A stretch of 64,000 nt of DNA from Burkholderiales bacterium (GCA_965279115.1 OZ257137.1:2806587-2870586), one strand, 5' to 3'; positions 46,068 through 62,327 are shown, numbered from the stretch's first letter. Program-made: numbers and translations. The notes: generated by a model not told the origin, from the letters alone.

Positions 46068-48284
46068 ATGGCCAATCGATTTATTATCGGTCGTGGGGAG
46101 CTTCTGACCTACGACATCCTCCCACCGTCAATCAAGCCGACGAAATCACATCCATATACGCTTGACCAGGCCAAGGAGGCGGTTATTCCGCAAATTAGGA
46201 AAGCTGCGGTGGTGATGAAGGAATTACCGCAAGAGGCCTGCCCCCAGGACGTAAGCGTTGCGCAGCTGGACCTGCACCCGGCCTACATCTCAAAATCTTA
46301 CTTTCCCCAGGCACTGCTGCGACAGGCCGGCTTAACATCGATCGGTAGCCGAAATGTCGTAGTTCGGCCACGCAAACGTCACTCGAAAGCGGCGCCGGAA
46401 GAATCTGAGACGACCAGGCTATTTATTGCCGGCACGCGGAGTGCGTTTGCCAAACTGCCTGATTTCGCCATCGCATTGCAACCTGAAACCAAGGAGGCGG
46501 AGAATTTCGCAGAGATCGAATCCTTTTCCGCGATGACAGTAACCGATCGCGTGCGCCCTTCTCCTTCCGGCCAGGAAATATTTGAAATCGGCGTTCATCT
46601 ACTCCCGGATGAGCAACTGGAAGCGACGCGCAGCGCATTTCGAAGGTATGCCAAGTCATGCGACTTCGAAATTCACCCCGAGCTGGAATTCCCTGTCGGG
46701 CGCATGATCTTTTTCGCGGCCCGCGGCGAGAAAAGAAATCTGAACCGACTCGCAATGTTCAGCCTCGTGCGCGTGGTACGTCCAATGGCAAAAATGCGTG
46801 GTTCACGCCCGATTCCCCGCGGAACAGGGACGCTGGTCGACTTCATGCTTCCAGCAAGTCAGCCATTAGCCGACGAGCCGCGCGTGGCGATCTTGGACGG
46901 CGGCTTACCTGCAAAACATCCGCTGACCCGTTTCGTGAAGAAGTACGAGAAGTCAGATCCACGGGCGGCGGACGTTCCTGCATATCTCGACCATGGGCTT
47001 GCGGTCACGTCCGCCTTTCTTTTTGGGCCGATTGAGCCGGAAGAAGAGGCGGTTCGTCCCTACACGCCGGTCGACGTTTTTCGTGTCCTCGATTCCAAGT
47101 CGGACAAAGAAGATCGGTACGAACTGTTCCGCACCATGGGCCACGTGGAAGAGATTCTCTTGACCCGGCAATATCAGTTCCTCAATATAAGCCTCGGACC
47201 CGAAGCGATCGTGGAGGACAACGATGTGCACGCGTGGACGTCTATGCTCGATACCATGTTGTCGGATGGAGAGACAATCGTCACCGTGGCGGTGGGTAAC
47301 AATGGCGCCGGAGACAAAGCACTACAGCAGGATCGTCTGCAAGTGCCTTCAGACAGTGTCAATGCTATCTCAGTGGGCGCCGCGAACCGCTCAAGGGCGT
47401 CGTGGCAACGGGCATCCTACAGCGCTCGCGGCCCCGGGCGCAGCCCTGGGCGCCGGAAACCCGATGTCGTGGTTTTCGGGGGAAGTCCGAAGGAATACTT
47501 TCATGTCGCCGCGCCCGGGACGCGGCCGCAACTTGTCGCGACATTCGGGACGAGCTTTGCTTCACCGTACCTTCTTCGATCCTGTGTTGGTGTACGGGCA
47601 GTTCTCGGCGATCAGGTCCATCCGTTGACCGCAAAGGCCTTGGTTGTTCATGCAGCAGAAAACGAAGACGGACTGCATCCCGACGATGTCGGCTGGGGCC
47701 GTGTTCCAAGTGATTTGAACGCGATCATTTCTTGCGGTGTCGGTGTCGCGCGCATCATTTATCAGGGAACTCTGCGTCCTGGAAAGTTACTGCGCGCGCC
47801 ACTTCCACTTCCCACCAAAGCCTTGGCAGGCAACATCGAAATCACGGCAACCTTCTGTTACGCGAGCCCGGTCGACGTCGCGGATGCCGCCACGTATACC
47901 AAGGCTGGCCTCACCATTCGGTTCCGTCCAAACTCGGATAGGAAGACCAAGGGTAAGAAGCCTGAGGCGGCAACAAATTCCTTTTTTTCCCAAGGGGAAT
48001 TTCGAACTGAAAAGCAGCTTCGCGCTGATCTTGGCAAATGGGAAACTGTCCTACACGCTAAAGCCACCAAGCGTGGCAGCAGCTTGAAGGAACCCTGCTT
48101 TGACATCCACTACAACGCACGGGACGGTGGAGGGCCGACCGGCTCCGGTGCGGAAATTATCCGTTACTCATTGGTCTTGACTGTTCACGCCCCTAGGCAT
48201 GTCGACATTTACGATGAGATATTGAGATCGCACGCAAAGCTACAGGCGCTTGCGCCTCGGGTAGCGTTGCCAATTCGAGCGTGA
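46068..48284 (+). CDS. ietS: subtilisin-like (S8) serine protease, IetS-like
   Basis: Catalytic blocks in the S8 order: AILDGG (Asp), DHGLAVTSA (His), VGNNG (Asn), GTSFASPY (Ser). Large N- and C-terminal extensions. Confidence 0.8.
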   Translation: MANRFIIGRGELLTYDILPPSIKPTKSHPYTLDQAKEAVIPQIRKAAVVMKELPQEACPQDVSVAQLDLHPAYISKSYFPQALLRQAGLTSIGSRNVVVRPRKRHSKAAPEESETTRLFIAGTRSAFAKLPDFAIALQPETKEAENFAEIESFSAMTVTDRVRPSPSGQEIFEIGVHLLPDEQLEATRSAFRRYAKSCDFEIHPELEFPVGRMIFFAARGEKRNLNRLAMFSLVRVVRPMAKMRGSRPIPRGTGTLVDFMLPASQPLADEPRVAILDGGLPAKHPLTRFVKKYEKSDPRAADVPAYLDHGLAVTSAFLFGPIEPEEEAVRPYTPVDVFRVLDSKSDKEDRYELFRTMGHVEEILLTRQYQFLNISLGPEAIVEDNDVHAWTSMLDTMLSDGETIVTVAVGNNGAGDKALQQDRLQVPSDSVNAISVGAANRSRASWQRASYSARGPGRSPGRRKPDVVVFGGSPKEYFHVAAPGTRPQLVATFGTSFASPYLLRSCVGVRAVLGDQVHPLTAKALVVHAAENEDGLHPDDVGWGRVPSDLNAIISCGVGVARIIYQGTLRPGKLLRAPLPLPTKALAGNIEITATFCYASPVDVADAATYTKAGLTIRFRPNSDRKTKGKKPEAATNSFFSQGEFRTEKQLRADLGKWETVLHAKATKRGSSLKEPCFDIHYNARDGGGPTGSGAEIIRYSLVLTVHAPRHVDIYDEILRSHAKLQALAPRVALPIRA

Positions 48285-48691: not shown

Positions 48692-49300
48692 TCAGCTTGC
48701 AAGTCTCCCTTTTGACGTCCAAAAGGCCAAGTCACGGTCCCCCTTGTCATGGGCGGAGTTCGGGCCGGATTGACGCGCCAGCAGCCCCTCATAAATCTGC
48801 GCTCCAACACTGGAAAGCGCGATAAACTGCGCTACCCGCAGCCCTGGGTAGAGGACGATTGGCACTGTTCCCACATTCACCAGTTCAAGGGTGATCGCCC
48901 CGACGAATCCCGGGTGCACAGCAACTGCTGTTGCCACGACAAGTCCGGATCGCCCCCAAGAAGAGCGAGATGTGACATACCCAGAAATATCCACTGGCAA
49001 GCGAAACCATTCCATGGTCGCTGCAAGGACAAGTTCGTTTGGATGTAGGACGAATTTCTCACCGCGGTCGACATAGTGGTGATGTTCGTATTTTTCCTTC
49101 AGCCTATTTGGCGCTTTGGCCGGATCGATGGAATCCAGGTTTCCGCGACGGGTCGTGATGAACTCATACCCCAGGCGGACGTCAATGGACCCCGGGCCGA
49201 CTTGCTCTTCCAGATCGAAGATCGGCGTGATAATAAGTCGGGACTCGAGCGTTTCCCGGGTCATCGCCTCGATTAATTTGTCGTGGCCAAGCACACTCAT
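48692..49300 (-). CDS. dCTP deaminase / dUTPase-fold protein (short Dcd-like)
   Basis: By eye it aligns with E. coli Dcd blocks: SIDVRLG, LHPNELVLAATME, SRSSWGRSGL, HPGFVGAITLELVN. The catalytic Ser, Arg and Glu positions are retained. ATGA overlap with the upstream gene. Confidence 0.8.
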   Translation of the reverse strand: MSVLGHDKLIEAMTRETLESRLIITPIFDLEEQVGPGSIDVRLGYEFITTRRGNLDSIDPAKAPNRLKEKYEHHHYVDRGEKFVLHPNELVLAATMEWFRLPVDISGYVTSRSSWGRSGLVVATAVAVHPGFVGAITLELVNVGTVPIVLYPGLRVAQFIALSSVGAQIYEGLLARQSGPNSAHDKGDRDLAFWTSKGRLAS

Positions 49301-50700
49301 CGATTCGGCTTCTCTTCATCGTACAACTGCTTCATTAGGATGGATTCGACACCGCGGAGTGTGATCGTGTTCAAAAGCTCCCGTTGCTTCGCCGTGAGCG
49401 GCTCCGACACGCCCCCAACCGCCTTCTGGCCGTGAATTGCCCAGCACCAACCTGCCAAAATGGCTGACGCCCAAGTGGGGGATTTTTTCGTGGCGCCGAC
49501 ACCGATCTCGTCCGGCGGAATATCGAACGAAATTCTCTCGACAAGCTCTGGTACTTCGCTTTGGAGGGAATCGCGCGAGTAAGTAAGAGCCTGCACATTC
49601 TGTTTCGCAAGCTTCTTCGCATGCTCAATCGTGATGCCCATGAGATCGTATGCCTTCTGCATCCCGAGATGCTTGCGCTCACGCATTGCCACCTCGTCGG
49701 CGTCGTTCTTTGCCAATGTTTGCAAGAAGTCGATGAAAGCGGCCACAGATGGATAGCAATCTAGTTTGCCGCCTGATGCAGGAGGTGAACTACGAAGCGC
49801 GTCCACAAATCCTTCTTCCTCAAGAGTTTTGAGAGCGAAGCGCAAACGATGGCGAGCAGCCGGATAGAAGCCGGGCTCGCTCGGTAGTTTGTCGAGATCT
49901 CTGTGAGAAGTGACCCAATAAAAGGCGAAGAGCGCGCTCGGTCCAAAAAGTAGCAATCCGACATAGTCGGATATCAGTTCCTCCATGCCCCGCAGCCAAC
50001 AGCTGCGGATATGGTGAAATTCCTTAGCAGCCTCGACAGTCTTGACGGCAGGTGACTGTGCGGTGGACTTTGCCCGCAGATCGTCGCGAATGCCGTTCAT
50101 GGGGTCCTTTATCAGGGCAAGCATAGTCGGGTCGGCGATACATCGTGCCGCGACCAGATGTCCCACTTCGTGCCCGAAAACTGCGTGGGCGAGGATATTG
50201 TCCCTTTCCATGCGTGGAAAAGTTATTACGAACAAAGGGTCTGAAAAGAACTTGAAAAAGTCTTTTTCAGATCCTGTTTCCTCCGCCAAGATGAAGAGAT
50301 CTTTGACTGGGTCAAGGATCAGTGGCGCTAGATTCGTTATCCGATAGTTGTATTCTGCGGCTGGTGCAGCGATCAAGCGGCACTTCGAACCTGTAATATC
50401 GTGTGCGACCAGAAGTTTTTCGAGAATCCACACTAGGCCGCGCGGCGTCTGCTCGGTGTGAGCGTTGTCGAAATGAACGAGGAGCTTTTGCCATTCGATC
50501 GCGGCACGAATAAACAGCTTGGTCTGGTCGAGGTCGGCTGTACTCAGCTTTACTTCGACCCGGTCCAACATCAGGCGAAGGTGCGAAAGGGCATCAATCG
50601 TCGCCGCTGAAGGATAGTCCCTGCATTCCAATTCGCGGAAGCGTTCTTTGAGACTGCTAAGTAAGCCTCGTGCTCGTCGTTGAAGGAAATCTAAGTCCAT
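49297..50700 (-). CDS. putative zinc metallopeptidase (HExxH) of unrecognised family
   Basis: HAVFGHEVGH motif with a downstream MEELISDYVG segment. The rest of the 467 aa is unrecognised. Confidence 0.6.
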   Translation of the reverse strand: MDLDFLQRRARGLLSSLKERFRELECRDYPSAATIDALSHLRLMLDRVEVKLSTADLDQTKLFIRAAIEWQKLLVHFDNAHTEQTPRGLVWILEKLLVAHDITGSKCRLIAAPAAEYNYRITNLAPLILDPVKDLFILAEETGSEKDFFKFFSDPLFVITFPRMERDNILAHAVFGHEVGHLVAARCIADPTMLALIKDPMNGIRDDLRAKSTAQSPAVKTVEAAKEFHHIRSCWLRGMEELISDYVGLLLFGPSALFAFYWVTSHRDLDKLPSEPGFYPAARHRLRFALKTLEEEGFVDALRSSPPASGGKLDCYPSVAAFIDFLQTLAKNDADEVAMRERKHLGMQKAYDLMGITIEHAKKLAKQNVQALTYSRDSLQSEVPELVERISFDIPPDEIGVGATKKSPTWASAILAGWCWAIHGQKAVGGVSEPLTAKQRELLNTITLRGVESILMKQLYDEEKPNR

Positions 50701-50717
50701 TCAGTGGACGAGCTACC

Positions 50718-51221
50718 CTATTCGGGAAAGGACATGACCGTCCGCAGAGCTGCTGTCTTGCCGATAACTGGTTCGTCTCGCTCGAGGAGTTGTGAAACCT
50801 GTCGGTACAAAGAGTCAAAAAAGAGCTCAAACAGCTTAAAGCTGGTGGCGTCTTTCGAGTCACGCGGCGCTTTGGGATTTTTTGCACTGCGTTCGACCGC
50901 GGATGCCACCATGGCAAGAAAATCACCGATCTCCTGGTTGTCCTCAAGCTGCTTTGAGAGTTCAGTTACCGGGTCAATTGCCAGGTCAAGCGCGTCAAGC
51001 GCATCCAGCAGCCCACCGGTGGGGGGATCGCTTCCTTCAAGGTACGAGGCGCCTGTGGACACACTCTTCAAGAAGTCGATGCCCACGTCAATCGCATCCC
51101 GTTCGGAGCCAGTCAGGTCTTCACCGCACTCAAGGCGCTTTGCTGCAGCCTTGGCGCGCGTGGCAAGGAATCCGTAGTTCAGGAATTTGGCGTTTTGCAA
51201 ATCGACTGCAGGCGCGCTCAT
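50718..51221 (-). CDS. hypothetical helical protein, first gene of the Dcd-like trio
   Basis: GGAGAA RBS 8 nt before the ATG. 167 aa with no motif recognised. Confidence 0.5.
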   Translation of the reverse strand: MSAPAVDLQNAKFLNYGFLATRAKAAAKRLECGEDLTGSERDAIDVGIDFLKSVSTGASYLEGSDPPTGGLLDALDALDLAIDPVTELSKQLEDNQEIGDFLAMVASAVERSAKNPKAPRDSKDATSFKLFELFFDSLYRQVSQLLERDEPVIGKTAALRTVMSFPE

Positions 51222-51641
51222 CGTGGGTCTTCTCCAACTTGACGTTCATTGCCAAATCGCAAGCAATGCAGGTGCCTATGCCACTGCTTCCCAATATGGC
51301 ATAACGAGCCAAACTCGGGAATGTTGAGTGAGATATAGGCTACATCCCGTGTTGCGCGGGATCTGTGTGCAATACCGAGCAGTTGGAAAACTGGCATTAC
51401 ACGTATCTGTGTGTCTTGCTGTACAACACGACCGGCACAGATGGCTCCAATTTAGGTTTTTTGCTATAGCTACGTAGGCGCGGCAAAGTACCTCTTAAAT
51501 TGGTGTAGTAATTTATTTCATGAGCGATATCGTGTCAATTCGGATTTTTGTAAATTTTCGCCATAACCGGTCGGGAATACCTTCGAGGTTTTTCGGCCCC
51601 GGAAGAATCTCAGGCCGTCTGGCAATCGTTAACGACGACTG

Positions 51642-53021
51642 CTAATTGCGAGGTAGGCAGAAGCCGCAGTTTGGTGCCGTGCTATTCTCAAAAACGACTT
51701 GCCGGTCGACCGGGGATCGCAGGTCCATGTCCAATAGCGCGATGCGGCGCCCGCCGTGAAGGCCACGAACTATCTCGGCAATGACCAGACATGCCGCTAT
51801 CATGCCCACAAACGGAGCACCCACCGTCCGCTCGGCCAGCAAGACCAGTCCGCACTGGTCAAGGCCAGCGGCGCTGAGGGCTTGGTAAGCCTCGCGTTCC
51901 AACGGCAACACGCCGCGCACGGCCGGCTTGCCCCAAATTTTCCGAGCTGCCCGAGGCCCCGGGAACGTGTTCAAGCGCATGGTCTGGAACTCCGCAGGCC
52001 CTGCCCCGAGGCCGGCGTCGATGACCCACGTGAAACCCACTTCTTCCAGTGCCGAACGGGCCATCGCGTTGTCGACGCCGCACAAAGCCAGCGAGGGTTC
52101 GTCTTCACGTACCCTGAAATGCGAGTCGAACTTCCGTTCCACCAGACGCGTCTGAAATCCCAATCCCTCGGCCCAAGCCGCCATCGCCCGGGTTTTGGGA
52201 CGGTCGCGGAGAGCTGCCGTGGTCAGCACTGACGTGCTTTCATTGGCCAGGTTCAGCCGATCGAAGTCCTGGAGTACCAGAGTCAGATCTTCCGGGTTGC
52301 GATACGGCAACATCGAAAGCACCCATAGGTAGGCCTGACCAAGGTGGCCCAGACCAATCAGCCAGAGCGAGTTAGGCAAGAGTTCCAGCTTCGGCGCCTG
52401 CGCATCGGCTTTGATCCAGTTCTCGGCCGTCCCGGGTGACCAGAGAGACATTCCGACTGCTCGCCGCGCCGCCGGCGCGAACCCGCCGCGCAAGTGCAAG
52501 AACACCTCGGACACCGCGATGGCGCCTGCCAGCACACCCGCAATCGTCAACGTATTCTTGCCGGTCGGCAGCGTGGCTTGGTCGGCAGGCAGTACGCCAC
52601 CACGCCAGCCATCGAATACGCAACGCAGTGCGACTGCCGAACGGTCGTCAATCAGGGTGTCACCGATGATGATCAATGGTATGACAGTAGGCGGCGTTTC
52701 ACCCAGACGTCCGCCGAGGGCAAGCACAGCTTCGCGCAGCGTGTTTGCATTATCGGAGGGGACCAGAAGCGGTGCGTCAGGTACGCTGCTCACGAACACG
52801 CCTCCGAGAAGGGCACGTCGGCCAATCGCAATCACCGTTAACAGGGCCGCCTGACCCGCAGGCGTTTCTGCGGCTTCCTCACCGATGACCAGTTCCGTCG
52901 AATACCCAAAAAGCTTCCTTTCGGCCTCTTCAATGGTCGCCGCGTCGCCGGCGTCGACAAGGATCTTGACGATACGATTGAGTTCGTCGGGGGTAGGTAT
53001 CTGCTTCGTCATGATGCTCAT
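51642..53021 (-). CDS. bilD: E1-like (ThiF/MoeB-fold) activating enzyme, BilD-like
   Basis: Rossmann motif LIGLGHLGQAY and the adenylation-domain block CGVDNAMARSAL. Its ATG overlaps the JAB gene stop (ATGA). Confidence 0.7.
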   Translation of the reverse strand: MSIMTKQIPTPDELNRIVKILVDAGDAATIEEAERKLFGYSTELVIGEEAAETPAGQAALLTVIAIGRRALLGGVFVSSVPDAPLLVPSDNANTLREAVLALGGRLGETPPTVIPLIIIGDTLIDDRSAVALRCVFDGWRGGVLPADQATLPTGKNTLTIAGVLAGAIAVSEVFLHLRGGFAPAARRAVGMSLWSPGTAENWIKADAQAPKLELLPNSLWLIGLGHLGQAYLWVLSMLPYRNPEDLTLVLQDFDRLNLANESTSVLTTAALRDRPKTRAMAAWAEGLGFQTRLVERKFDSHFRVREDEPSLALCGVDNAMARSALEEVGFTWVIDAGLGAGPAEFQTMRLNTFPGPRAARKIWGKPAVRGVLPLEREAYQALSAAGLDQCGLVLLAERTVGAPFVGMIAACLVIAEIVRGLHGGRRIALLDMDLRSPVDRQVVFENSTAPNCGFCLPRN

Positions 53022-53536
53022 CCCAGAAATCCAATGTAGAAGAATTGTCGGGCCGCGCCAGAATGATCTTTCCACCTATAACCGCCCCGGTACTCGAAGA
53101 TGCACAGGGTGTCAGCCGACAGGCTGCCTCGGCCCATATTCGACGCGATCAAGGCGAGGTGGCCAGCACGTGCCACCATGGGGTTGGTTCGGTCGGCGTC
53201 GCTTTGAAATGCACGGCCGACATGGGTGTGAATGTCAGCCACTACCGTCAGCGCCTCCTCTCTGCAGGTCTGCCAGAGCTTTCCGAACGAATCGCCCGTT
53301 AGGACGCAAACGCCGCTTTTGTAAGCGTTCGGGTCGAGGTCGTCGTAGTACAGTGCCTTGACGATCTCGCGCACACCGTCAGTGTCGCGTCCCAGCAGGA
53401 ACGCTCCACTTTCGTGGAAGCCTTCGCTTCGACGGGTCAGCTCTCGCCGGATAACTGACCACATGCCCGACCTGACTGTCAGGCGATGATCAGGGGCAAC
53501 GAACGCCCGTATAGTCTTGCGAATTGAGAAGTTCAT
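53018..53536 (-). CDS. bilC: JAB/JAMM metalloprotease, BilC-like
   Basis: HESGAFLLG (Glu) and DIHTHVGRAFQSDAD (an HxH-x6-SxxD JAMM-like motif). A strong GAGGTG SD lies 4 nt before ATG 53536, which sits inside the 3' end of the E2-like gene. Confidence 0.8.
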   Translation of the reverse strand: MNFSIRKTIRAFVAPDHRLTVRSGMWSVIRRELTRRSEGFHESGAFLLGRDTDGVREIVKALYYDDLDPNAYKSGVCVLTGDSFGKLWQTCREEALTVVADIHTHVGRAFQSDADRTNPMVARAGHLALIASNMGRGSLSADTLCIFEYRGGYRWKDHSGAARQFFYIGFLG

Positions 53537-53975
53537 ATATCACCTCGAGGTAGCTGACGATGCCGGTCTGCTCCGACCAGCACATCGTTGGGTATTGGGA
53601 CAACCAAAGGGGGTGACCTTCCAGACTCACGCGATCGCACGGCAGATACAGGGCTTCGCCATTCTTCCAATCGGTCCTGAACGCACCGGGTACCCGCGAA
53701 CGCCCGTTCGGCCACCGGTCAAAAGGCAGCGGCTGCTTCGCGGCAACATCCCAGGGGCGCCCCGTTGCAGGCGTACGCCGGTAACCAGTGCATTCAAACC
53801 TGAAGCTGTATTCGCTCGGCATCCCAGCGCGTTTCGCCGCGGACACCGTGATGATCAGGTAGGGCCATTCGAGGCTCACCATCCTCCACCGGCCCGTGCA
53901 GGCGCCGAGGAGAAAGGCGGAACGTTCGAGGTCCTCAACCAGGCTTTTGTAATCCGGCCGGACGGTGACCTCCAC
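53490..53975 (-). CDS. bilB: E2-like (UBC-fold candidate) protein, BilB-like
   Basis: Called from its position between the Ubl and JAB genes and its 161-aa size. Candidate catalytic Cys in LYLPCDR or FECTGY. The GTG start lies 3 nt after the Ubl stop. The fold was not verified. Confidence 0.5.
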   Translation of the reverse strand: MEVTVRPDYKSLVEDLERSAFLLGACTGRWRMVSLEWPYLIITVSAAKRAGMPSEYSFRFECTGYRRTPATGRPWDVAAKQPLPFDRWPNGRSRVPGAFRTDWKNGEALYLPCDRVSLEGHPLWLSQYPTMCWSEQTGIVSYLEVIYELLNSQDYTGVRCP

Positions 53976-53978
53976 AAT

Positions 53979-54473
53979 CTAGCCCTCGACGCGCTGGATC
54001 GGCACAAGGTCGAAGCAGATGTCGCAGTGGCCCAGTTCTGTTAACGCGCCGATCTGCAGGTCCGGTGCCGGGCGTTCCGTCGTGTTGCAAATTTGCAGCG
54101 CGTGGTCTGCCTTGTCGGGTCCGTGGACGTCGAACTGCCTCAAGGCCCAGTGCAGTACGTGTTTAACTGTCACAGACGGGCGGAACACGTGCTTGTGCGT
54201 CTTGTCCGTGAAGTGAACCGTTACCTCAATTTCCTTGCAGCGGTGCACGTGCACGCGCGAGTGGCGCTTAACCAGTGCGTCCTTGAGCGAGGCCGACATC
54301 GGGAAGGGGATCTCGACCTCGTCGACGAAGATCAGCCCGCCGTCCGCAGGTACCTGCAGGCCTTTTTCCGCCGCGGCGCGCACTAGATCCCGGAGTAGCG
54401 CCGTTTCCGCCACAGAGATGATCTCGATTCGCGAATCACCTGCGGTCTGCACAAACACTTCAATCACATTCAT
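53979..54473 (-). CDS. bilA: ubiquitin-like protein with probable tandem beta-grasp halves and a C-terminal Gly, BilA-like
   Basis: 164 aa, ending in ...LVPIQRVEG followed by the stop. The two halves each open with an IEV-x-V strand (NVIEVFVQT and KEIEVTVHF). AGGAA RBS before ATG 54473. Confidence 0.6.
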   Translation of the reverse strand: MNVIEVFVQTAGDSRIEIISVAETALLRDLVRAAAEKGLQVPADGGLIFVDEVEIPFPMSASLKDALVKRHSRVHVHRCKEIEVTVHFTDKTHKHVFRPSVTVKHVLHWALRQFDVHGPDKADHALQICNTTERPAPDLQIGALTELGHCDICFDLVPIQRVEG

Positions 54474-54497
54474 ATCAGTTTCCTTTCGGAGGTTTGG

Positions 54498-54515
54498 GGC
54501 GGCAAGATTGCCGCC
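54498..54515. promoter_or_regulatory. perfect 8-bp palindrome between the HTH-like gene and the Ubl gene
   Basis: GGCGGCAA-ga-TTGCCGCC lies 25 bp upstream of the Ubl start and has no U-tract. It could be an operator or an RNA hairpin. Confidence 0.3.
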
Positions 54516-54556
54516 TTTCACACTCAAATCTCAGGAAACCGATAAAACGTGCAACT

Positions 54557-55153
54557 CTATTTCATCCAGGACTCCAGGTCTTCGCGCGCCAGGCCGCATT
54601 CCGCCCATGCTTCTTCGAACCTTTTGCTTCGTTCTTCGCCCGACGGTGGAAGGACGCTTCGAATGAAAGACGGCGACGGTGAAGAAAGGCCGCCGCGCGC
54701 CAGCCATCCGACCAACCAATCGATCGAGGCCTTGATGTGTTCCGACAGCGCAGCGATAAAGCGGTCCGGAATGGACGATAGTTGTACCGTCTTGCTATCA
54801 AGCATTTCAAGCAGTTCCACACTGCAATCAAGCTTTCCTGCAACTTCGAAGATATCAATGCCGGAGGCTTGCGCGGTAGAAATAATGCCGGGCGGCATTA
54901 CCCTGCTTCGAAATTTGTGAAGCCGATTGGCCAGATCGCTGCCTGCACGCGTGTGCGCTAAACCCTCGTTCACGGAGCCAGGCCCGCTCGTCGAGCGAAG
55001 CTGGTACAGCCATTCACCAACGAACGTGGTGATGTCGTCGGTGAACTCGGGATACCGTGCGCACCAGACTTTTGCTGTCCGACAGTCGGGGACATCGACC
55101 GATGACTGCATTGCTTGCAGAACATCGTCCAAATTGGGGCGGCTGGAATTCAT
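54557..55153 (-). CDS. hypothetical protein with a possible HTH segment (candidate partner/anti-sigma of the upstream gene)
   Basis: 198 aa. ATGA overlap with the sigma-like gene. The segment ISTAQASGIDIFEVAGKLDCSVELLEMLDSK looks XRE-HTH-like. This is a weak call. Confidence 0.4.
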   Translation of the reverse strand: MNSSRPNLDDVLQAMQSSVDVPDCRTAKVWCARYPEFTDDITTFVGEWLYQLRSTSGPGSVNEGLAHTRAGSDLANRLHKFRSRVMPPGIISTAQASGIDIFEVAGKLDCSVELLEMLDSKTVQLSSIPDRFIAALSEHIKASIDWLVGWLARGGLSSPSPSFIRSVLPPSGEERSKRFEEAWAECGLAREDLESWMK

Positions 55154-55887
55154 GTTCTTTCTCCGATTTCAGCTTTGAGGGCCGCGAAAATTTTCTCGAA
55201 CCAGTAGTGCACAGTCCGCTTATTGCGATGGACTAGCTTTTCGATGGAAATAACGTCGGGGTCGCTAGACTCGATCGGGTACCCGTCGCTATACCAATAT
55301 TCGAATGCCACTCGTTGCTCGTCTTTGAGCGTGGGCAAAACCTTCTGCAGAGCCATGCGCAAATTCTCGCTCAGCTCCATTGCGCGCTTCATTTCCAACA
55401 TGGCCTGGGCGTTGCTAATCGGCACCTCGTCGAGGTCTTCGCCCACAACCACTTCTTTGGCGCGTAGCTTCCTTAGGCGCGCTGCCGCTGTCAACGCGCG
55501 GCGCGAGACGAAGTGACCGAAGGAGATCTCACAATAGCGGAGCCTGCTTAGGTCAGCGTGGATCAGGTCTTCATTGATCGCGTGGAGTGTCCGGTCGACT
55601 ACTTCCTGGGCGTCGATTTCAGCCAGCCCCATGCACTTGCTGTTGGCAATTTTGATTGCGCGGGGATAGATTTGCTGGTCGACAAGCTGCTGAAAGAGGT
55701 CGTCATATCCCCAGGCTAAAAGGCGCCTCGCGAGAGTACACAGCGTCTCCTTTTTCCATTGGTGCGCCTGGTCAACCCAATCGTCCACAGGTACGTCGCC
55801 GGCAGCCGACAGCTCAACGACCACCTCCGGGCGTCGAACAAAGCCGGTCGTGCCGGAGGACGCGTTCGCTAGCGGTGAGGTGTCCAT
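55150..55887 (-). CDS. sigma-70/ECF-like protein (region 2-like and region 4 HTH-like segments)
   Basis: AEIDAQEVVDRTLHAINEDL is region-2-like. LPTLKDEQRVAFEYWY...IEKLVHRNKRTVHYWFEKIFAALK is region-4-like. The similarity was judged by eye only. Confidence 0.45.
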   Translation of the reverse strand: MDTSPLANASSGTTGFVRRPEVVVELSAAGDVPVDDWVDQAHQWKKETLCTLARRLLAWGYDDLFQQLVDQQIYPRAIKIANSKCMGLAEIDAQEVVDRTLHAINEDLIHADLSRLRYCEISFGHFVSRRALTAAARLRKLRAKEVVVGEDLDEVPISNAQAMLEMKRAMELSENLRMALQKVLPTLKDEQRVAFEYWYSDGYPIESSDPDVISIEKLVHRNKRTVHYWFEKIFAALKAEIGERT

Positions 55888-56292
55888 TGGTGATCCTGGT
55901 GCCTATCGTATTACCAAATCATCGCGTTCCTGGAAAACATGCAATCGACATTTGAAAGAAATGTTCAGAAAAGACATTGGCGAAAAATATCATTAGTAAT
56001 CAGAAGGATAAAGTATATTGATATCGATGGTGTAGTCGGTGTGGGCGTCGCGATAGGCCTGCAAGTAGTCGGTATTACCCTTGTCCCACGCTTGCCGGGC
56101 GCGGGCGTGATTGTCGCGGTCGTCCGGATCGACGGCGAGTTTGTTGCTCTGCCAGCTTCGGGGCGAACGCTTGGCCGCAGGCGACGCACCGTATGCATTG
56201 CATCTGGATCTCGGCGCATGCGGGTGACGCGCATGGTGCGGGATCGAGGTCGGATGAGATCGGCCTACAGATGATTTCGATTGGAAGACACC

Positions 56293-56392
56293 GCTTGCTA
56301 CTGTCGCTACCGCTGCTACCGATCAGAATTCAGGGGAAGGGGTAGGGGCAGCGACGATAGCAACAGTAGCAACAGTAGCAACAGTAGCAGCC
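56293..56392. repeat. iteron-like 9-bp periodic repeats in inverted arrangement (candidate replication origin or long hairpin)
   Basis: The left arm has three NNNNGCTAC units (56293-56319). The right arm has RTAGCAACA three times plus GTAGCAGCC (56357-56392). They flank AGAATTCAGGGGAAGGGGTAGGGG, and the array starts 32 bp past the primase stop. Confidence 0.75.
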
Positions 56393-56423
56393 CCCTCCTA
56401 CGCAGGATTGCGTCGTTTGCCTC

Positions 56424-58943
56424 TCAGTCGGCGTTCCCCAGGAGCGCAGTATTGATGACTACATACCGTCTGCGCCCGTCTTCTTCCAGTCGGGCCCGGT
56501 TACGTTCGGCGAGAATGGACAGCGCCGCCTGGAAGTCCCGGCTGCTGCGCACGCAATTCGGCCCATACTGATAGATGCGCTTGGTCGGTACACGATCCAC
56601 GCCGTTGGCGCGCGCTTCCTGACGCAGCCAGGCATCGAACCGGATCGCAGCAGCCATAGAGGGTGGCGTATCCAATTCAGCAAGCAGGCGCCGCGCTTCG
56701 CCTAAGTGCCACCCAACTATATGGACGGCCGCATCAATATCCCCAACCCCGATCGTTCCAGCAGGCCCATGCGCCAGCACATGAAACAGCGCTGCCAGGC
56801 GCGCAGCATTCTCCGCCGCCTTCGCGGCCACATCGCGAACAGCGCGGAATTCCCCATGTGCACCGAGTTCACGCTCAATCCCATCGTGAAACTGGATCCA
56901 CTCCGCACGTGCCTGCGGCGCGAGATCGAGGATGGGCGGATCAAGGCCGCCGCAGGCGTCGGCCGCGAGTGCCTGCCCGAGCAGGTCGCCGATGCGCGCC
57001 GCATACAACGTCACGCTCGGCATGGTCGCGGGCGCCGGCCGATACGGCCGCTGTCCTTGCGTGCTGTCTGGCCAGGCCATGAGGAAGCGCGCGATAAACC
57101 CGGTCCCTCGTGGCAGCGGTCCGGCCCGTTCCAGGAACCCCCGTAACGCCTCCGGCTGCGCCATCAACCCGAACGTGAGGCGCCGGCCGCGCAGCAAGAA
57201 CGAGGGCCGGGATCGCCGATCGATCGCCATCTCTCCGCCGTCCCACAGGACATTGAGCAGCGCCAGATTGCGCAGAATCGTGTCCTGCCCCATGCCATGC
57301 GCGCCGAACACCGCACCGGCTTCCGCGGACAGCACGCCGCCGCTCGGCCAACCGTTGGCCAGCGCATGCGCCAGTGCTTCTGGCGTCGCATCGGCGTAGA
57401 TCAGGCGCGGCACGACAAGCGGCGCAAGCGCCTGGCGGACCAGGTCCTCCAGTTCACTCTCTTGGACCGTCGTGTCCTGCGCGCGGCGCCGCCGCTGCTT
57501 GATGGCTTCGAGAAGGCCTGCTTTTTTCGCCTCGTATGCCGCGATTGCCGCTTCGCGCTGGGCGATCGCCGGCGCCATGCCCAGGATCCGACCGGTTTCC
57601 CAATCCCGCAACGCCTGGCCAAAGATCGCGTCACAGGTGGTCTTGCGTTCCCCGGAATCGGCCACTGCCATCAGATACAGGGAAATCGGACCCACCAACT
57701 GGTGATCCCGGCGCACGTTGGCCAACCCCTGCGCCGCCAGCGATAGTGCCGCCAGGGCCGAGCACGCGACAAGTGCCATGGGGGCCTGTACAAAGCCCTG
57801 GGCTTCGGTCACCGCGTCGCGCAACATCGTGGGCAGGGCGTCGACCGGGTAAGGCTGCGCGTCCATCGGTTCGGTCAAGGGTTCGGGCTCTGGCCATTCC
57901 GGAAATCGCGTCCCGCTGGCCTGTGGAGGCCTTGTGTCGAAATTGCCGCCGGCTACCGGCTCCACGGCTGCGGTAGAGAGCGTATTTCGAACGGCGATCA
58001 AACCCTGGAGCTGATGCAGGTCGTTGAAGTCCGTCGCGCCGTCCGGGCGATCGGCACCAAATGCCGGAACCGCGAGTCGCGCATCCACCGCACGCGCAGC
58101 GGCGCGGGCGTGCGTGAGGCCTGGATTGCCAGGCGTGGCCGCATCGTCATCGGCGCAGATGATGAGCTGCGCCCGGGGATGTTTATCCCGGATGACCCCG
58201 GCGACCGCGCCAAGATTGCCGGCATGGAAGGCCACGGCCACCGGATGCCCTGTGGCCAGGTGAATGCTCGCGCCGGTCGCATAGCCTTCGGCGACGCAGA
58301 TGACCCCCGCCGTGGTATTGCCGACATCTCCGATTCCGCAAAACAGGCCGGCGACACGTCCGCCCTTCAGGAATCGCTTGGTGCCGCCTCCCGTGATGAA
58401 CTGCAAGCTGTGCAACACGCCGGCCGCGTCGCGTAGCGGTACGACCAGGGCCCCCTTGTAGACGCGTATCCCGAACGCGCCGACACCTTTGCGCACCAGG
58501 TAGGGGTGGTGGTGGTCTGCCGGCTGTGCCGTCTCCCAGAGACGCGTAGCGCGAGCCTGCGCGGCACGGTGACGTACTGCATTTGCTGCCTCGCGCCGAT
58601 CGAGGTCGACGCGGGTTCGCGTGGCAATCGTCGCATGTTCCCCTGGCGACAATTCTCGTCCCGAGTCGAAGCGCCAGGATTCCCAGCCGCGGCCATCACG
58701 CCAGTTCTCCAGACCGCCCGCCGGTAACCCATCCATGTGCAGGACGTAGGCGGCATCGCCGCGACCGTGCTTGCCGGCCGCGTCGCAGCGATGCAGGCAA
58801 CCGTCTGCGAGTATCGGTTCCGGTGGGACGATGTCGCGGGCGACGAGGGCAGCGCGAAACTGATCCACGACCGACGCCAAACTGGGGGCGGTTCTCGGGG
58901 CGTGGCTTGGGCGAGGAGAAGAGGATTTCTGATCGCCAGCCAT
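56424..58943 (-). CDS. Toprim-domain primase-like protein with a DUF3987-like C-terminal half (island replication protein)
   Basis: Toprim Glu in VICVAEGYATG and DxD in IICADDD. The C-terminal DSGERKTT block is typical of DUF3987 proteins. The gene starts 6 nt after the alpA stop. Confidence 0.8.
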   Translation of the reverse strand: MAGDQKSSSPRPSHAPRTAPSLASVVDQFRAALVARDIVPPEPILADGCLHRCDAAGKHGRGDAAYVLHMDGLPAGGLENWRDGRGWESWRFDSGRELSPGEHATIATRTRVDLDRREAANAVRHRAAQARATRLWETAQPADHHHPYLVRKGVGAFGIRVYKGALVVPLRDAAGVLHSLQFITGGGTKRFLKGGRVAGLFCGIGDVGNTTAGVICVAEGYATGASIHLATGHPVAVAFHAGNLGAVAGVIRDKHPRAQLIICADDDAATPGNPGLTHARAAARAVDARLAVPAFGADRPDGATDFNDLHQLQGLIAVRNTLSTAAVEPVAGGNFDTRPPQASGTRFPEWPEPEPLTEPMDAQPYPVDALPTMLRDAVTEAQGFVQAPMALVACSALAALSLAAQGLANVRRDHQLVGPISLYLMAVADSGERKTTCDAIFGQALRDWETGRILGMAPAIAQREAAIAAYEAKKAGLLEAIKQRRRRAQDTTVQESELEDLVRQALAPLVVPRLIYADATPEALAHALANGWPSGGVLSAEAGAVFGAHGMGQDTILRNLALLNVLWDGGEMAIDRRSRPSFLLRGRRLTFGLMAQPEALRGFLERAGPLPRGTGFIARFLMAWPDSTQGQRPYRPAPATMPSVTLYAARIGDLLGQALAADACGGLDPPILDLAPQARAEWIQFHDGIERELGAHGEFRAVRDVAAKAAENAARLAALFHVLAHGPAGTIGVGDIDAAVHIVGWHLGEARRLLAELDTPPSMAAAIRFDAWLRQEARANGVDRVPTKRIYQYGPNCVRSSRDFQAALSILAERNRARLEEDGRRRYVVINTALLGNAD

Positions 58944-58949
58944 GCGCGG

Positions 58950-59174
58950 TTATTCCGGGCGGCGGTCGCCGTCGCGGGCGATCTTGACGCGCCCGGCGAT
59001 CCACGCACTGACCTCCGATTCAAGCCAGCCGACCGCGCGCGGGCCAAGCGGTACGGGTTTCGGGAATGCGCCTTCCTGGATGTATTGATAGATGGTGCTG
59101 CGCGAGAGTCCCGTGCGCGTCTGGACTTCCTTGCGGCGGAGAAACGCAGGCTCACGCTGGATGGTCTGGGACAT
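58950..59174 (-). CDS. alpA: AlpA-family transcriptional regulator / excisionase-like
   Basis: FLRRKEVQTRTGLSRSTIYQYIQEGAFPKPVPLGPRAVGWLESEVSAWI is the classic AlpA HTH. GAGGTG SD 6 nt before ATG 59174. Confidence 0.8.
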   Translation of the reverse strand: MSQTIQREPAFLRRKEVQTRTGLSRSTIYQYIQEGAFPKPVPLGPRAVGWLESEVSAWIAGRVKIARDGDRRPE

Positions 59175-59270
59175 GGTCGTCACCTCACGGCTGGCAATGG
59201 AAGATGCCGATGTTTCCACGGCGAACCGCCGGTGTCCGACGCGATTGCGGCCTTGGCGAAGCACTGATTC

Positions 59271-59668
59271 GACGCAATGTTCGTCAATGTGAGTGCGGTG
59301 AGTGCGGGCGGATGGCGACTACCGTCAAGTGCTGAAGCCCGTTTGGTTACGCGCACTGGTGTGCGCCTCGCCTCTGTAGAACGAACGAATCGGACCGTTG
59401 AAAACCCGGTCTCATCGGGTGGGGATTGTTCGTTCAAGCGCGGGGCCGTACCTCTATTCGGGTGAATTGTGCAACTCGATTGGGGGCCCGGTCGCGGCAC
59501 GATTTCGATTGACGCAATGAAGGCGGAGCTGCCGTGACGCCGCCACGCTCCAGCTTCGAACGCATGTTGCGTCAGCATTGCAGACACGCAGAGATGCCGA
59601 GCTTCGGGCGGGCGCGGGAACTTGCCGGCGCAGCCAACGGTCTGATGCGTTACCGCGACGACGCAATG
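59271..59668 (+). repeat. three direct copies of GACGCAATG upstream of alpA
   Basis: Exact 9-mers at 59271-59279, 59511-59519 and 59660-59668. The first two share a GATT(C) prefix. Confidence 0.7.
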
Positions 59669-60124
59669 CACCTGGTCGCTGTGCGGTCGCGAGGCAAGGA
59701 TTTTTCACGGTGGCTCCGCCAGCCCGCCTGATGCGCGTTAAGCATCGCCCATGGCTCGTTCACGCGAGCGCCAGAAGCCGGCCACATCTCCCGCAAGCCG
59801 GCGACCGAAAGGTACGGAGATCGTCCATGCGATCCCGCCCTACGGGCGGCCTGTTCAAGCAACACGCAACGATTGGCACCTTCAGATCGCCCACACTGCT
59901 GCAACGGTGGCGCGATTCGTAGCGGTTCCCTGACTCGCTCACCGGGAGCGCGCATCTTCTCGTTGTGGTGCGCGACACTGCGCCAGTCGCAGCCCAGGCT
60001 TGCGGCGCGTGTCCAGCGTGTCGCTGGACGTTCGCGTCAATGCAGCGACGCCAGGCGTCACATCTGTGGCGCGTACTGCGCCAATGTATTTGCGTCTTGC
60101 GGTGCCATCTTCTGCAGCAACCAT

Positions 60125-60165
60125 CGCGTCGTCACTACCCGGCGCCAGCCAGTAGTGACGACGCG
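60125..60165. repeat. 14-bp perfect inverted repeat with a 13-nt spacer, part of an AGTGACG motif cluster
   Basis: CGCGTCGTCACTAC-N13-GTAGTGACGACGCG. Further AGTGACG copies lie at 60208-60214 and 60221-60227. Confidence 0.7.
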
Positions 60166-60863
60166 CACAATGTCCTTGCCATCAAAGACTTATCGGTGGC
60201 TGGCGCAAGTGACGACCCCAAGTGACGGGCTCCCTGACCCGTCGTCAATCCGGACCGCGCAATACGGTCTGCCTTCTCGCCTGCTCCCCGCAGGCATCGT
60301 CAATACCGCGCCGAGCAAGCGCCCCTCAGAGCCCTGGGTCAACGGCTCAAATCGTTGGAACAGCTTCCAACAGGAAAGCACCATCGACGCCAAGAACGGG
60401 TGCAGCCGTGGCAAGTAGCAAAAGCAGTTCTGCACACATCGGGAGTGGTGTCCCGAGTCCCTTGTAGTTCCCGACACGCCCAGGCGTGCGGGACGGACAG
60501 AAACACTTACCGGACAGGCTTCACACACCAGCGTCATCACATCAAGAAGGACTACTGGCGCAACGAACCGAGGAAAGGAATTGAGACAGGCGGCAAATCA
60601 ACTCACAATCACACACACGATCCGAACTTCGGACAGCAGCACATTTGGAACCGCGATCGCGAAGGTGTCCATGCCCCTGGCTGCGCGGTTGTTAGCAGTG
60701 CTGAAACGCCGCTCCGGAGCCGGGTCAAGGGCGGGCGCATGCCCGGCGTAGCGAACCCTTGACGCGGTGGAGGGGCGGAACAAGCTCGTGCGTGGCCGGA
60801 AGTGCGGCGCCTTCGCGCTTACGGCCATGCCGGCCAGCGCTATTGCAAAGCCGAAATACCCGG

Positions 60864-62084
60864 TTACGCCGCGCGCGGTTTCAGAGGAATCACCTCGGCA
60901 CCTTGCCGTAGCCGGTCGAGGTAGTCCGCCCATTTCTGCATCATGCGGCGCCGCGAGTCGAGATGTGCCGTGCGGTTATAGGCGCGACCGTTCGGATCTT
61001 TGACGGCGTGCGCGAGCTGGTGCTCGATCCAGTCAACCCGATACCCCAACCCCTCGTCCAGCAGCGTTCGCGCTGTCGCGCGAAACCCGTGCGTGGTGAC
61101 CTCGCTCGTGGAATAGCCAAGGCGACGTAGCGCGGCGTTCAAGGTGTTGTCGGAGATCGGACGTTCTCCCGTCCGCTCGCCTGGAAACAGATAACGCCCG
61201 TGCCCAGTCAGCGGCTTCAGTTCGTCGATGATTTTCAGCGCCTGCTTGCAGAGCGGGACAATATGCGGCTCGCCCATTTTCATTTTCTTGGCGGGCAAGC
61301 GCCACTCGGCCGCCTCAAAGTCGAACTCTGCCCACTCCGCCATCCGCAATTCGCCCGGACGCACGAACAGGAGCGGCGCCAGGCGCAGCGCGGCTTTGGT
61401 GGTTGGTGAGCCGGAGTAGCCCTCGATCGCCCGCAGGAGCGCGCCAAGCGCCACGGGCTCGACGATGGCCGCGAGGTGGGTCTTTTGGGCGGGCGGTAGG
61501 GCACCACGCAAATCGGTGGACGGATCGCGTTCCGCGCGGCCGGTCGCGACGGCGTACCGAAATACCTGGCTGCAGTTCTGTTGTGCTCGGTGCGCAGTTT
61601 CGATCGCGCCGCGTTCTTCAATGCGGCGCAGGGTCGCCAACAATTGCGGCGCCCTGATTTCCGCAACGGGCAGGCCGCCTATCCACGGGAAGACATCACG
61701 CTCCAGGCGGCGGATGATCTTGCTGGCGTGCCCAGGTGCCCACTTGGGCGAGAACTTCGAAAACCACTCGCGCGCCACCCGCGCGAAGCTGTTTTCGCTT
61801 CGCTCCGTGCTCGCCGCCTTCTGCATCTGGCGGTCGATGCTGGGATCGATGCCGTTGAGCAACAGTTTCCGCGCCGCATCGCGACGGTCACGCGCATCCC
61901 GGACACCGATCTCGGGGTAGACGCCAAGGGACAGGAGCTTTTCCTTGCCGGCAAAACGGTACTTTAGTCGCCACCATTTGGAGCCGGCAGGCGTCACGAG
62001 CAGGAACATGCCTTTCTCGTCGCTGATCTTGTACGCCTTGTCCCGCGGCTTGGCGTTTTTGGCCGCTGCGTCGGTGAGTGCCAT
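60864..62084 (-). CDS. int: tyrosine recombinase / integrase, P4-type with DUF4102 arm-binding N-terminus
   Basis: N-terminus LTDAAAKNAKPRDKAYKISDEKGMFLLVTPAGSKWWRLKYRFAGKEKLLSLGVYP, the C-terminal HGFRATARTLL block, and the YNRTAHLDSRRRMMQKWADYL tyrosine region. Confidence 0.95.
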   Translation of the reverse strand: MALTDAAAKNAKPRDKAYKISDEKGMFLLVTPAGSKWWRLKYRFAGKEKLLSLGVYPEIGVRDARDRRDAARKLLLNGIDPSIDRQMQKAASTERSENSFARVAREWFSKFSPKWAPGHASKIIRRLERDVFPWIGGLPVAEIRAPQLLATLRRIEERGAIETAHRAQQNCSQVFRYAVATGRAERDPSTDLRGALPPAQKTHLAAIVEPVALGALLRAIEGYSGSPTTKAALRLAPLLFVRPGELRMAEWAEFDFEAAEWRLPAKKMKMGEPHIVPLCKQALKIIDELKPLTGHGRYLFPGERTGERPISDNTLNAALRRLGYSTSEVTTHGFRATARTLLDEGLGYRVDWIEHQLAHAVKDPNGRAYNRTAHLDSRRRMMQKWADYLDRLRQGAEVIPLKPRAA

Positions 62085-62118
62085 GGAGTTGGGGGTAGCA
62101 GATTTTAGGAGGCTGACA

Positions 62119-62139
62119 TTACCCCCAACGCTACCCCCA
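62119..62139 (+). repeat. paired (T/C)TACCCCC motifs, 12-bp spacing (right island end)
   Basis: TTACCCCCaacgCTACCCCC, 35 bp upstream of the integrase start. It mirrors 41421-41441 in the same orientation. Confidence 0.6.
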
Positions 62140-62182
62140 AAACAGACCGGATGTCAACGAATCCAGGTGGCCGACATTGGAC

Positions 62183-62216
62183 GAAAAAAGCCGCGCTCAG
62201 AGGAGAAACGCGGCTT
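62183..62216 (-). terminator. rho-independent terminator downstream of tRNA-Phe
   Basis: Minus-strand AAGCCGCG-N13-CGCGGCUU followed by a U run (six T after CGCGGC). Confidence 0.55.
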
Positions 62217-62251
62217 TATCGGACTGCTTTGGAATTCTTTGGAGGGGTAAC

Positions 62252-62327
62252 TGGTGGCCTGGGGCGGAATCGAACCACCGACACAAGGATTTTCAATCCT
62301 CTGCTCTACCGACTGAGCTACCAGGCC
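62252..62327 (-). tRNA. tRNA-Phe (GAA anticodon), CCA encoded
   Basis: Hand-folded cloverleaf: GGCCTGG acceptor stem, GCTC/GAGC D stem, GAGGA-TTGAAAA-TCCTC anticodon arm with GAA, a TTCGATT T-loop, and a CCAGGCC-ACCA 3' end. Confidence 0.9.

Follow-up and report, generated by a model that had tools for sequence, protein, structure and literature searches.

Within a 64,000-nucleotide stretch of the genome of a Burkholderiales bacterium (GCA_965279115.1 OZ257137.1:2806587-2870586), referred to here as the window and numbered from its first letter, we analyzed three adjacent genes, A, B and C. They encode a small acidic protein, a protein with a zinc-peptidase signature and a predicted deoxycytidine triphosphate (dCTP) deaminase, respectively, and are considered here as a candidate anti-phage system (coordinates in Table 1). 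The genes are tightly packed. The TAG stop codon of A is followed by 17 nt and the ATG of B, while the tetranucleotide ATGA at 49297-49300 is common to the stop codon of B and the start codon of C. The guanine-plus-cytosine (GC) content of the trio is 0.544 compared to 0.662 for the first 40 kb of the window, and that of the 420-bp leader upstream of A is 0.476. An initial annotation, made from the sequence alone, had described a minus-strand trio with a 17-nt gap and an ATGA overlap behind an AT-rich 420-bp upstream region, as well as a low-GC, island-borne and translationally coupled C gene. The open reading frame (ORF) coordinates, the junction sequences, the GC values and the position in an island at a tRNA-Phe gene agree with this description. 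In the public annotation, B (P0001, 424 aa) begins 43 codons further downstream than here (window 50572-50700); we prefer the longer, 467-aa form because the N-terminus is conserved among the homologues.

The same arrangement is found in many other genomes. We collected 22 loci from species-representative genomes and 80 from metagenomes, which together with context look-ups gave 113 loci, or 74 non-redundant clusters at 90% B identity. In all 57 assessable clusters C directly follows B, mostly with a 4-nt overlap, and an A-like ORF precedes B in 62 of 65. The initial annotation had raised the question of whether the trio is syntenic elsewhere; with these counts A-B-C is a conserved cassette and a real unit. 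B and C are even fused into a single polypeptide in four cases (P0145, P0155 and P0183 with 713-726 aa, and a 671-aa protein at L012 1680-3695), and A and B in one (P0107, 598 aa). These natural fusions argue for a physical complex of A, B and C. The hosts include Gamma-, Beta- and Alphaproteobacteria, Acidobacteriaceae and Scalindua, in addition to metagenomes; Methylotenera versatilis (CP002056), Thiohalobacter and Dokdonella are examples of carriers with complete genomes. The spread is patchy, with the cassette in at least 22 of about 185,579 species genomes, a number to be read as a minimum, given that the scan was pattern-based.

The C protein matches the Pfam family DCD (PF22769) at 8.6e-35 with 120.5 bits (cut-off 27), and it passes the curated model TIGR02274 with 125 bits against a cut-off of 92.8. 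The closest solved structures are the dCTP deaminase-dUTPase of M. tuberculosis (2qlp, 2.8e-25) and E. coli Dcd (1xs1, 3.3e-21). Ser-111, Arg-115 and Glu-138 (E. coli numbering) are kept in all 21 aligned sequences, i.e. the window copy and 20 cassette homologues; in the E. coli reference, S111, R115, H121, D128 and E138 stand at their published positions, and the Glu-138 equivalent of C lies within TLELVN. The Dcd/dUTPase fold with its catalytic Ser, Arg and Glu had already been recognized in the initial annotation. By contrast to housekeeping Dcd and bifunctional Dcd-dUTPase (1xs1; 2qlp/2qxx), with which it shares the fold and these three residues, C lacks the conserved Asp-128, has a C-terminal tail with a motif of its own family, is island-borne and is coupled or fused to B. 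The position of Asp-128 in motif III (“IDPGW”, shared with dUTPases) is occupied by His in the window protein (“VHPGF”) and by H, Q, E or G in the family at large, and the neighboring aromatic residue is kept. Judged by model score and triad, C is to be placed in the Dcd family, from which it deviates at Asp-128. In dUTPase-fold enzymes the Asp of motif III serves the hydrolytic (dUTPase) reaction. Because this residue is lost, we expect with moderate confidence that the product of C would be dUTP rather than dUMP.

Could the trio simply be a nucleotide-metabolism operon, built around a variant housekeeping dcd or supplying a prophage or satellite with dUTP/dTTP precursors for its own replication? 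All sources annotate C as “dCTP deaminase”, phages do encode Dcd-like enzymes (PHROG 1663 matches C at 1.8e-36), one of the loci lies among housekeeping genes, and the TIGR02274 model is passed, if only by a modest surplus over its cut-off. Such an operon would not, however, be expected to show the patchy distribution and the low-GC, island-borne character described above, and a metabolic rationale for the obligatory HExxH protein and the hypervariable partner is missing. Homologues of B, moreover, were found in none of 2.9 M IMG/VR contigs, 72,556 PLSDB plasmids or 50,697 INPHARED phage genomes. We consider a purely metabolic role very improbable.

The B protein has no match in Pfam, NCBIfam, PADLOC or PHROGs and is recognizable, as first annotated, by its HExxH motif alone (HAVFGHEVGH, residues 172-181). 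A word-indexed search yielded 45 relatives, all of them named “hypothetical”, while an exhaustive profile search expanded the family to 1,879 clusters at 50% identity, 401 of which score below 1e-30. The residues His-177, Glu-178, His-181, Glu-241 and Asp-245 are invariant in all 52 full-length homologues from both clades of the cassette. In an AlphaFold2 model of B (predicted local distance difference test 91.7, predicted template-modeling score 0.91) a three-stranded sheet leads into the HExxH helix and then into a long helix, residues 217 to 252, that carries Glu-241 and Asp-245. This core is embedded in helical N- and C-terminal domains. Foldseek searches of the full-length model against the PDB gave nothing at E<0.4, and neither the core (residues 100-300) against the PDB nor B against the viral BFVD produced a significant match.

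The arrangement of an HExxH motif followed some 60 residues later by a Glu within R..E-x3-D, the candidate third zinc ligand, may correspond to that of the M48 peptidases (HtpX, Ste24/ZMPSTE24, Oma1). Pfam Peptidase_M48 (PF01435) is weakly matched by 11 of 37 B family members, at best with 9.2e-4, and the window protein itself has no match to it. Among the top 21 PDB hits of the core domain, ZMPSTE24 has the highest Foldseek probability (0.33), which is not significant. In an hhalign comparison with HtpX, E241-x3-D245 aligns on REFHAD, at an E-value of 0.02 and a probability of 2.4%. Unlike M48 members, B has no convincing membrane segment that could serve as an anchor, and its large terminal helical domains are without a fold match. 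Because the signals toward M48 are weak and all below significance, a membrane segment is not seen and no fold match is significant, we place B outside M48 as a new soluble zincin-like family, on motif and model grounds, which is possibly a distant relative of M48. The initial annotation had allowed that B might fall into an unrelated, well-characterized family; the searches returned no such family beyond these weak M48-like signals. A match to the DNA mimic DMP12 over an FGPS motif in PDB profile searches (E 0.08-0.39) was the sole hit and was rejected as chance.

A is acidic (isoelectric point 4.5), helical by composition and without a family match in the four libraries that were also searched with B, in keeping with the lack of a recognizable motif noted at first. 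A word-based search with A returned only the query itself. Its homologues were recovered through synteny in combination with phmmer and hidden Markov model searches, directly upstream of B, and they fall into two clades, Aa and Ab, between which alignment is marginal (hhalign E 0.004). The mean pairwise identity is 27% for A, 33% for B and 49% for C, so that A is the fastest-evolving and C the most conserved component.

This order of conservation is relevant to the alternative that the actual effector is B, as a Lit-like protease of abortive infection acting on a host or phage protein, and that C is a nucleotide-sensing or regulatory subunit. Lit of e14 is a zinc protease acting in defense, and zinc proteases more generally are known as defense effectors or regulators, e.g. 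CapP. B is also the largest and most family-specific component, its catalytic motifs are invariant, and C, with its substituted Asp-128, could have moved away from catalysis toward the sensing of a ligand. In a pure sensor, however, one would expect drift, whereas C changes least among the three proteins, keeps the full triad in every aligned homologue and passes an equivalog cut-off. We give little credence to B as the effector.

The genomic setting of the trio points to mobile elements and defense islands. In the window, IetA (2.6e-74) and IetS (4.8e-44) lie on one side and BilA to BilD on the other, which is the position between IetAS and Bil modules given in the initial annotation. The trio is cargo of an integrative element of low GC content, which is located at the tRNA-Phe gene and carries a P4-type integrase and a primase-like gene (56424-62327 from primase to tRNA; Table 1). 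Among the other copies, that of Burkholderia glumae is immediately next to the portal gene in a P2-like prophage, a position that corresponds to the documented P2 defense hotspot between gpA and gpQ (PMC9122126). The B. cenocepacia copy adjoins a prophage integrase, another is cargo of a Tn7-like element beside Wadjet genes, and the Methylotenera copy lies beside IS21. In yet another genome the trio is found together with NUDIX, SNase and ScoMcrA-like genes on an island with a P4-type integrase that is inserted in the trp operon. PADLOC models, many at E<1e-50, were matched by genes among 281 neighbors from 40 loci, and these matches include type I restriction-modification, DrmD, BrxH, PD-T4-6, LmuA and MADS as well as AbiEi, PDC-M28, PDC-S18, CapP/CapH and BilC. 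The enrichment near defense genes that the initial annotation had proposed as a check is thus borne out in qualitative terms, insofar as the neighborhoods are rich in defense and mobile-element genes. Conserved operon structure, patchy distribution and location on mobile elements or in defense islands are the generic attributes of defense systems, and the trio shows all of them, as judged qualitatively.

A location always on or near mobile elements would also be in line with a toxin-antitoxin-like addiction module that stabilizes such elements and has no primary anti-phage role, with C as the toxin and A and B as its neutralizers. The tight translational coupling and the small, fast-evolving upstream partner fit this idea, as would a toxicity of unrestrained dCTP deaminase, which we infer. 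On the other hand, the trio was found on none of the 72,556 plasmids, where addiction modules abound, the positions it occupies are known defense hotspots, and the boundary between such modules and abortive-infection defense is blurred in any case. An addiction module is, in our estimate, improbable, and we consider it likely that the trio is a system of defense or of conflict between mobile genetic elements.

Table 1. Features of the trio and its surroundings in the window
Feature	Position	Strand	Basis or remark
Gene A, 167 aa	50718..51221	minus	ORF listing
Gene B, 467 aa, HEVGH	49297..50700	minus	ORF listing
Gene C, 202 aa	48692..49300	minus	ORF listing
AT-richer leader upstream of A, 420 bp	51222..51641	minus	GC 0.476
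Sigma-70-like TTGACA-17-TAAATT, candidate promoter	51538-51510	minus	consensus match
Terminator-like hairpin, 12 nt past the C stop codon	48662..48680	minus	pattern match
Type I BilABCD, directly upstream of the trio, same strand	51642..54527	minus	PADLOC BilD 2.2e-168, BilC 2.9e-59, BilB 7.7e-61, BilA 7.9e-49
Pair of ORFs coupled by ATGA, of 245 aa and 198 aa	54557-55887	minus	directly upstream of BilA
Calcineurin-like metallophosphoesterase, 928 aa	41706-44492	minus	divergent from IetA
DUF3223/HamC-like ORF, 112 aa	48315-48653	plus	convergent with C
Intergenic 9-nt tandem repeat region	56280-56399		repeat at 56350-56385
Toprim+DUF3987 primase-like gene	56424-58943		
P4-type integrase	60864-62084		Arm-DNA-bind_3, Phage_int_M and Phage_integrase domains
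tRNA-Phe	62252-62327		

Promoter-like and terminator-like sites are no more numerous in the region than expected from shuffled sequence, and an Rfam search found no regulatory RNA in the 420-bp leader or in the rest of the trio. A 33-nt direct repeat at 46390 and 51594 has 76% identity and was judged to be due to chance. The defense cargo of the window island spans about 41.7-55.9 kb. At its edge, the metallophosphoesterase gene overlaps the start of IetA by 7 nt and has no PADLOC match; it may be a further uncharacterized defense gene. The DUF3223/HamC-like ORF lies 31 nt past the stop codon of IetS and matches PADLOC HamC at 2.7e-34 over profile positions 1-108 of 245, with HamA and HamB not found nearby. 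Between the coupled ORFs and the primase-like gene, a hairpin-prone intergenic region contains a 9-nt tandem repeat (AGCAACAGT-like) and gives Rfam matches to miRNA and isrG that are all below threshold.

Two kinds of genes recur as companions of the trio. The first is related to Bil, which has been described as a four-gene system tagging phage tail proteins (Bil papers). While the window contains a bona fide type I BilABCD, a diverged Bil-like operon is found elsewhere directly past C in convergent orientation. It consists of an E2 gene (BilB-like, 1.2e-5), a JAB gene (BilC-like, down to 5.8e-15) and a weakly BilD-like E1 gene, with a divergent CapH-like helix-turn-helix gene in the vicinity. 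This operon is present in 13 of the 21 Ab-clade clusters with at least 1 kb of downstream sequence and on five further short contigs. In the Aa clade it occurs in one of the 21 clusters with downstream sequence, and the remaining 20 are without any Bil-like gene. The loci with the operon, those of the Ab clade and the one of the Aa clade, include L018 (9562-12640), L006 (9867-12976), L019, L020, L068, L073, L075, L079, L085, L087, L095, L096, L103 and L111. Taken together, the diverged operons of the Ab clade and the type I operon of the window make the Bil adjacency recurrent and not incidental. Two coupled ORFs directly upstream of the window BilA (Table 1) match neither Pfam nor PADLOC models and may be regulators or accessory genes of that Bil operon.

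Does this recurrence mean that the trio serves Bil-type conjugation, as an accessory or as its output arm? A, B or C could be targets that the ubiquitin-like machinery modifies or regulates, or the modules could act sequentially on one phage. In the window the two operons share a strand, with no terminator-like site found between BilABCD and the trio, and in the loci with the diverged operon the genes outside the trio and the Bil-like block vary from one locus to the next. L001 encodes a further E1-type enzyme 3.6 kb upstream of the trio, a 500-aa protein that matches the Cap2-type E1-E2 models of CBASS at 6.5e-14 (L001/L038 2859-4361, minus strand). Yet the copies in prophages, in the Tn7-like element and on integrase islands consist of the trio alone, and in the Bil papers searched the four-gene operons are self-sufficient, with neither a deaminase nor an additional peptidase mentioned. 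In addition, many Ab-clade loci may share ancestry and would then not count as independent events, and the convergent orientation implies separate promoters for the trio and the diverged Bil-like operon. According to PADLOC, A, B and C match none of the BilA, BilB, BilC and BilD models. Since 20 of the 21 Aa-clade clusters lack a Bil-like operon, the trio is probably autonomous, and we regard its role as an arm of Bil as unlikely.

The second companion, seen in 21 of 54 assessable clusters (L003 7039-7467, L004 6929-7441, L023 8993-9436 and 18 further clusters), is a MerR-like helix-turn-helix gene (~150 aa, Pfam MerR_1) immediately upstream of A, either co-oriented with it or divergent. Its place is taken by a different, divergent 160-aa gene in L001, L002, L009 and L028. 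The window has no such gene: tblastn with the copies from the other loci gave a best E-value of 0.06, for the L011 copy against 54557-55887 upstream of Bil. This frequent regulator, the recurrence of the Bil-type adjacency and the B–C and A–B fusions had all escaped the initial annotation.

From these observations we lean toward the explanation that A, B and C make up a self-contained, mobile system in which a peptidase gates the depletion of dCTP, directed against phages or other mobile genetic elements. In this mechanism C would be the effector, a trimeric dUTPase-fold deaminase that, once switched on, would turn dCTP into dUTP. The draining of dCTP would block phage DNA synthesis, and the build-up of dUTP may also push uracil into DNA. 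As unrestrained activity would be toxic to the cell, a gate would be provided by B, the putative soluble zincin metallopeptidase, in a stoichiometric complex with C. Upon an infection cue, B would cleave an inhibitory element, most simply A or the tail of C, and the deaminase would be freed. A would be a diversifying helical subunit bound to B, acting either as a cleaved inhibitor or bait or as a specificity-determining sensor. Where it is present, the MerR-like regulator could add transcriptional control.

Depletion of dCTP is a proven defense strategy (10.1101/2021.04.26.441389). The defensive dCTP deaminase described there is a protein of 576 aa with an N-terminal kinase-like domain and a zinc-dependent cytidine deaminase (CDA) fold, and the statement in the initial annotation that such enzymes are larger fusions was accurate. 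Both it and C are found in defense islands, and C would likewise starve phage DNA synthesis by deaminating dCTP. In contrast, C has 202 aa, is predicted to adopt the metal-independent, trimeric dUTPase fold and always comes with two partner genes; it has no PADLOC match at E<=1, the dCTPdeaminase model included, and shows no CDA plus kinase-like architecture. A second comparison is offered by AvcID, in which the dCMP deaminase toxin AvcD is paired with the small RNA antitoxin AvcI (PMC10511110). There, too, a deoxycytidylate-deaminating effector is restrained by a labile antitoxin and released by infection. AvcD, however, combines a CDA fold with a P-loop NTPase and is held by RNA, whereas the putative restraint in the trio would be protein-based (A/B), with no non-coding RNA detected. 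C is not homologous to the 576-aa deaminase or to AvcD, and would represent the same strategy with another enzyme and another control.

For the proposed gate, the pairs CapP-CapH, ImmA-ImmR and IrrE-DdrO are the closest in concept, since they also place a zinc metallopeptidase beside a small partner, often a helix-turn-helix protein, to control a response of immunity or of a mobile element. Among the neighbors of the trio, CapH-like and MerR-like helix-turn-helix genes are frequent. In PADLOC and Pfam searches, though, B matches neither the capP model nor M78/ImmA-type models, and it differs from these peptidases in being fused to the effector in some lineages and in that over half of the loci, the window among them, lack the helix-turn-helix gene. 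The B–effector fusions suggest that control is post-translational and exerted within the complex, not by cleavage of a repressor.

Several points weigh against the peptidase-gated depletion of dCTP. The trio has no record in PADLOC 2.0.0, NCBIfam 2026 or the literature searched. The peptidase assignment of B follows from its motifs, with no significant Foldseek match and with the low hhalign probability against HtpX. The loss of Asp-128 in C could mean an altered chemistry and not simple dCTP deamination, while what is proposed for the target of B and for A is conjecture. Moreover, the enrichment of defense genes in the neighborhood is qualitative since a matched background is lacking, some copies lie among housekeeping genes (as at L028), and the recurrent Bil adjacency might mean that the trio is not autonomous after all.

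No description of the trio was found in the full-text literature searched, a scope that ends before newer DefenseFinder and PADLOC releases and papers in subscription journals. The unvalidated “dUTPase” defense domain of DefensePredictor was considered and set aside, as it belongs to another system (MazG-C/aGPT-Pplase). What appears to be new here is the effector fold and the peptidase family within nucleotide-depletion immunity, and on the features of the proteins and loci we consider the trio a well-supported candidate. In its most far-reaching form the proposal would make the trio the first immune system to rely on a dCTP deaminase of the trimeric dUTPase fold, bound one-to-one to a new soluble zincin and a hypervariable helical bait, in which proteolysis triggered by infection would set off dCTP-to-dUTP conversion, with depletion and uracil poisoning as its consequences, and which would be wired to co-traveling Bil-type systems. 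This full version is speculative, and we doubt that it holds in every part.

If the proposed mechanism is true, the trio would be a third, non-homologous route to immunity by depletion of deoxycytidine nucleotides, after the CDA-fold dCTP deaminase and AvcD, and immunity would have drawn its effector from a fold of core metabolism (Dcd/dUTPase). The zincin-like family founded by B is large, at about 1,900 clusters at 50% identity, and unannotated, its fold is confidently modeled and unmatched, and it would offer a case of a protease-gated metabolic enzyme. Because all current pipelines name C a plain “dCTP deaminase”, these loci are silently misfiled as housekeeping. Finally, the recurrent pairing with Bil hints at a cooperation of early defenses, acting on replication, with late ones that act on assembly.

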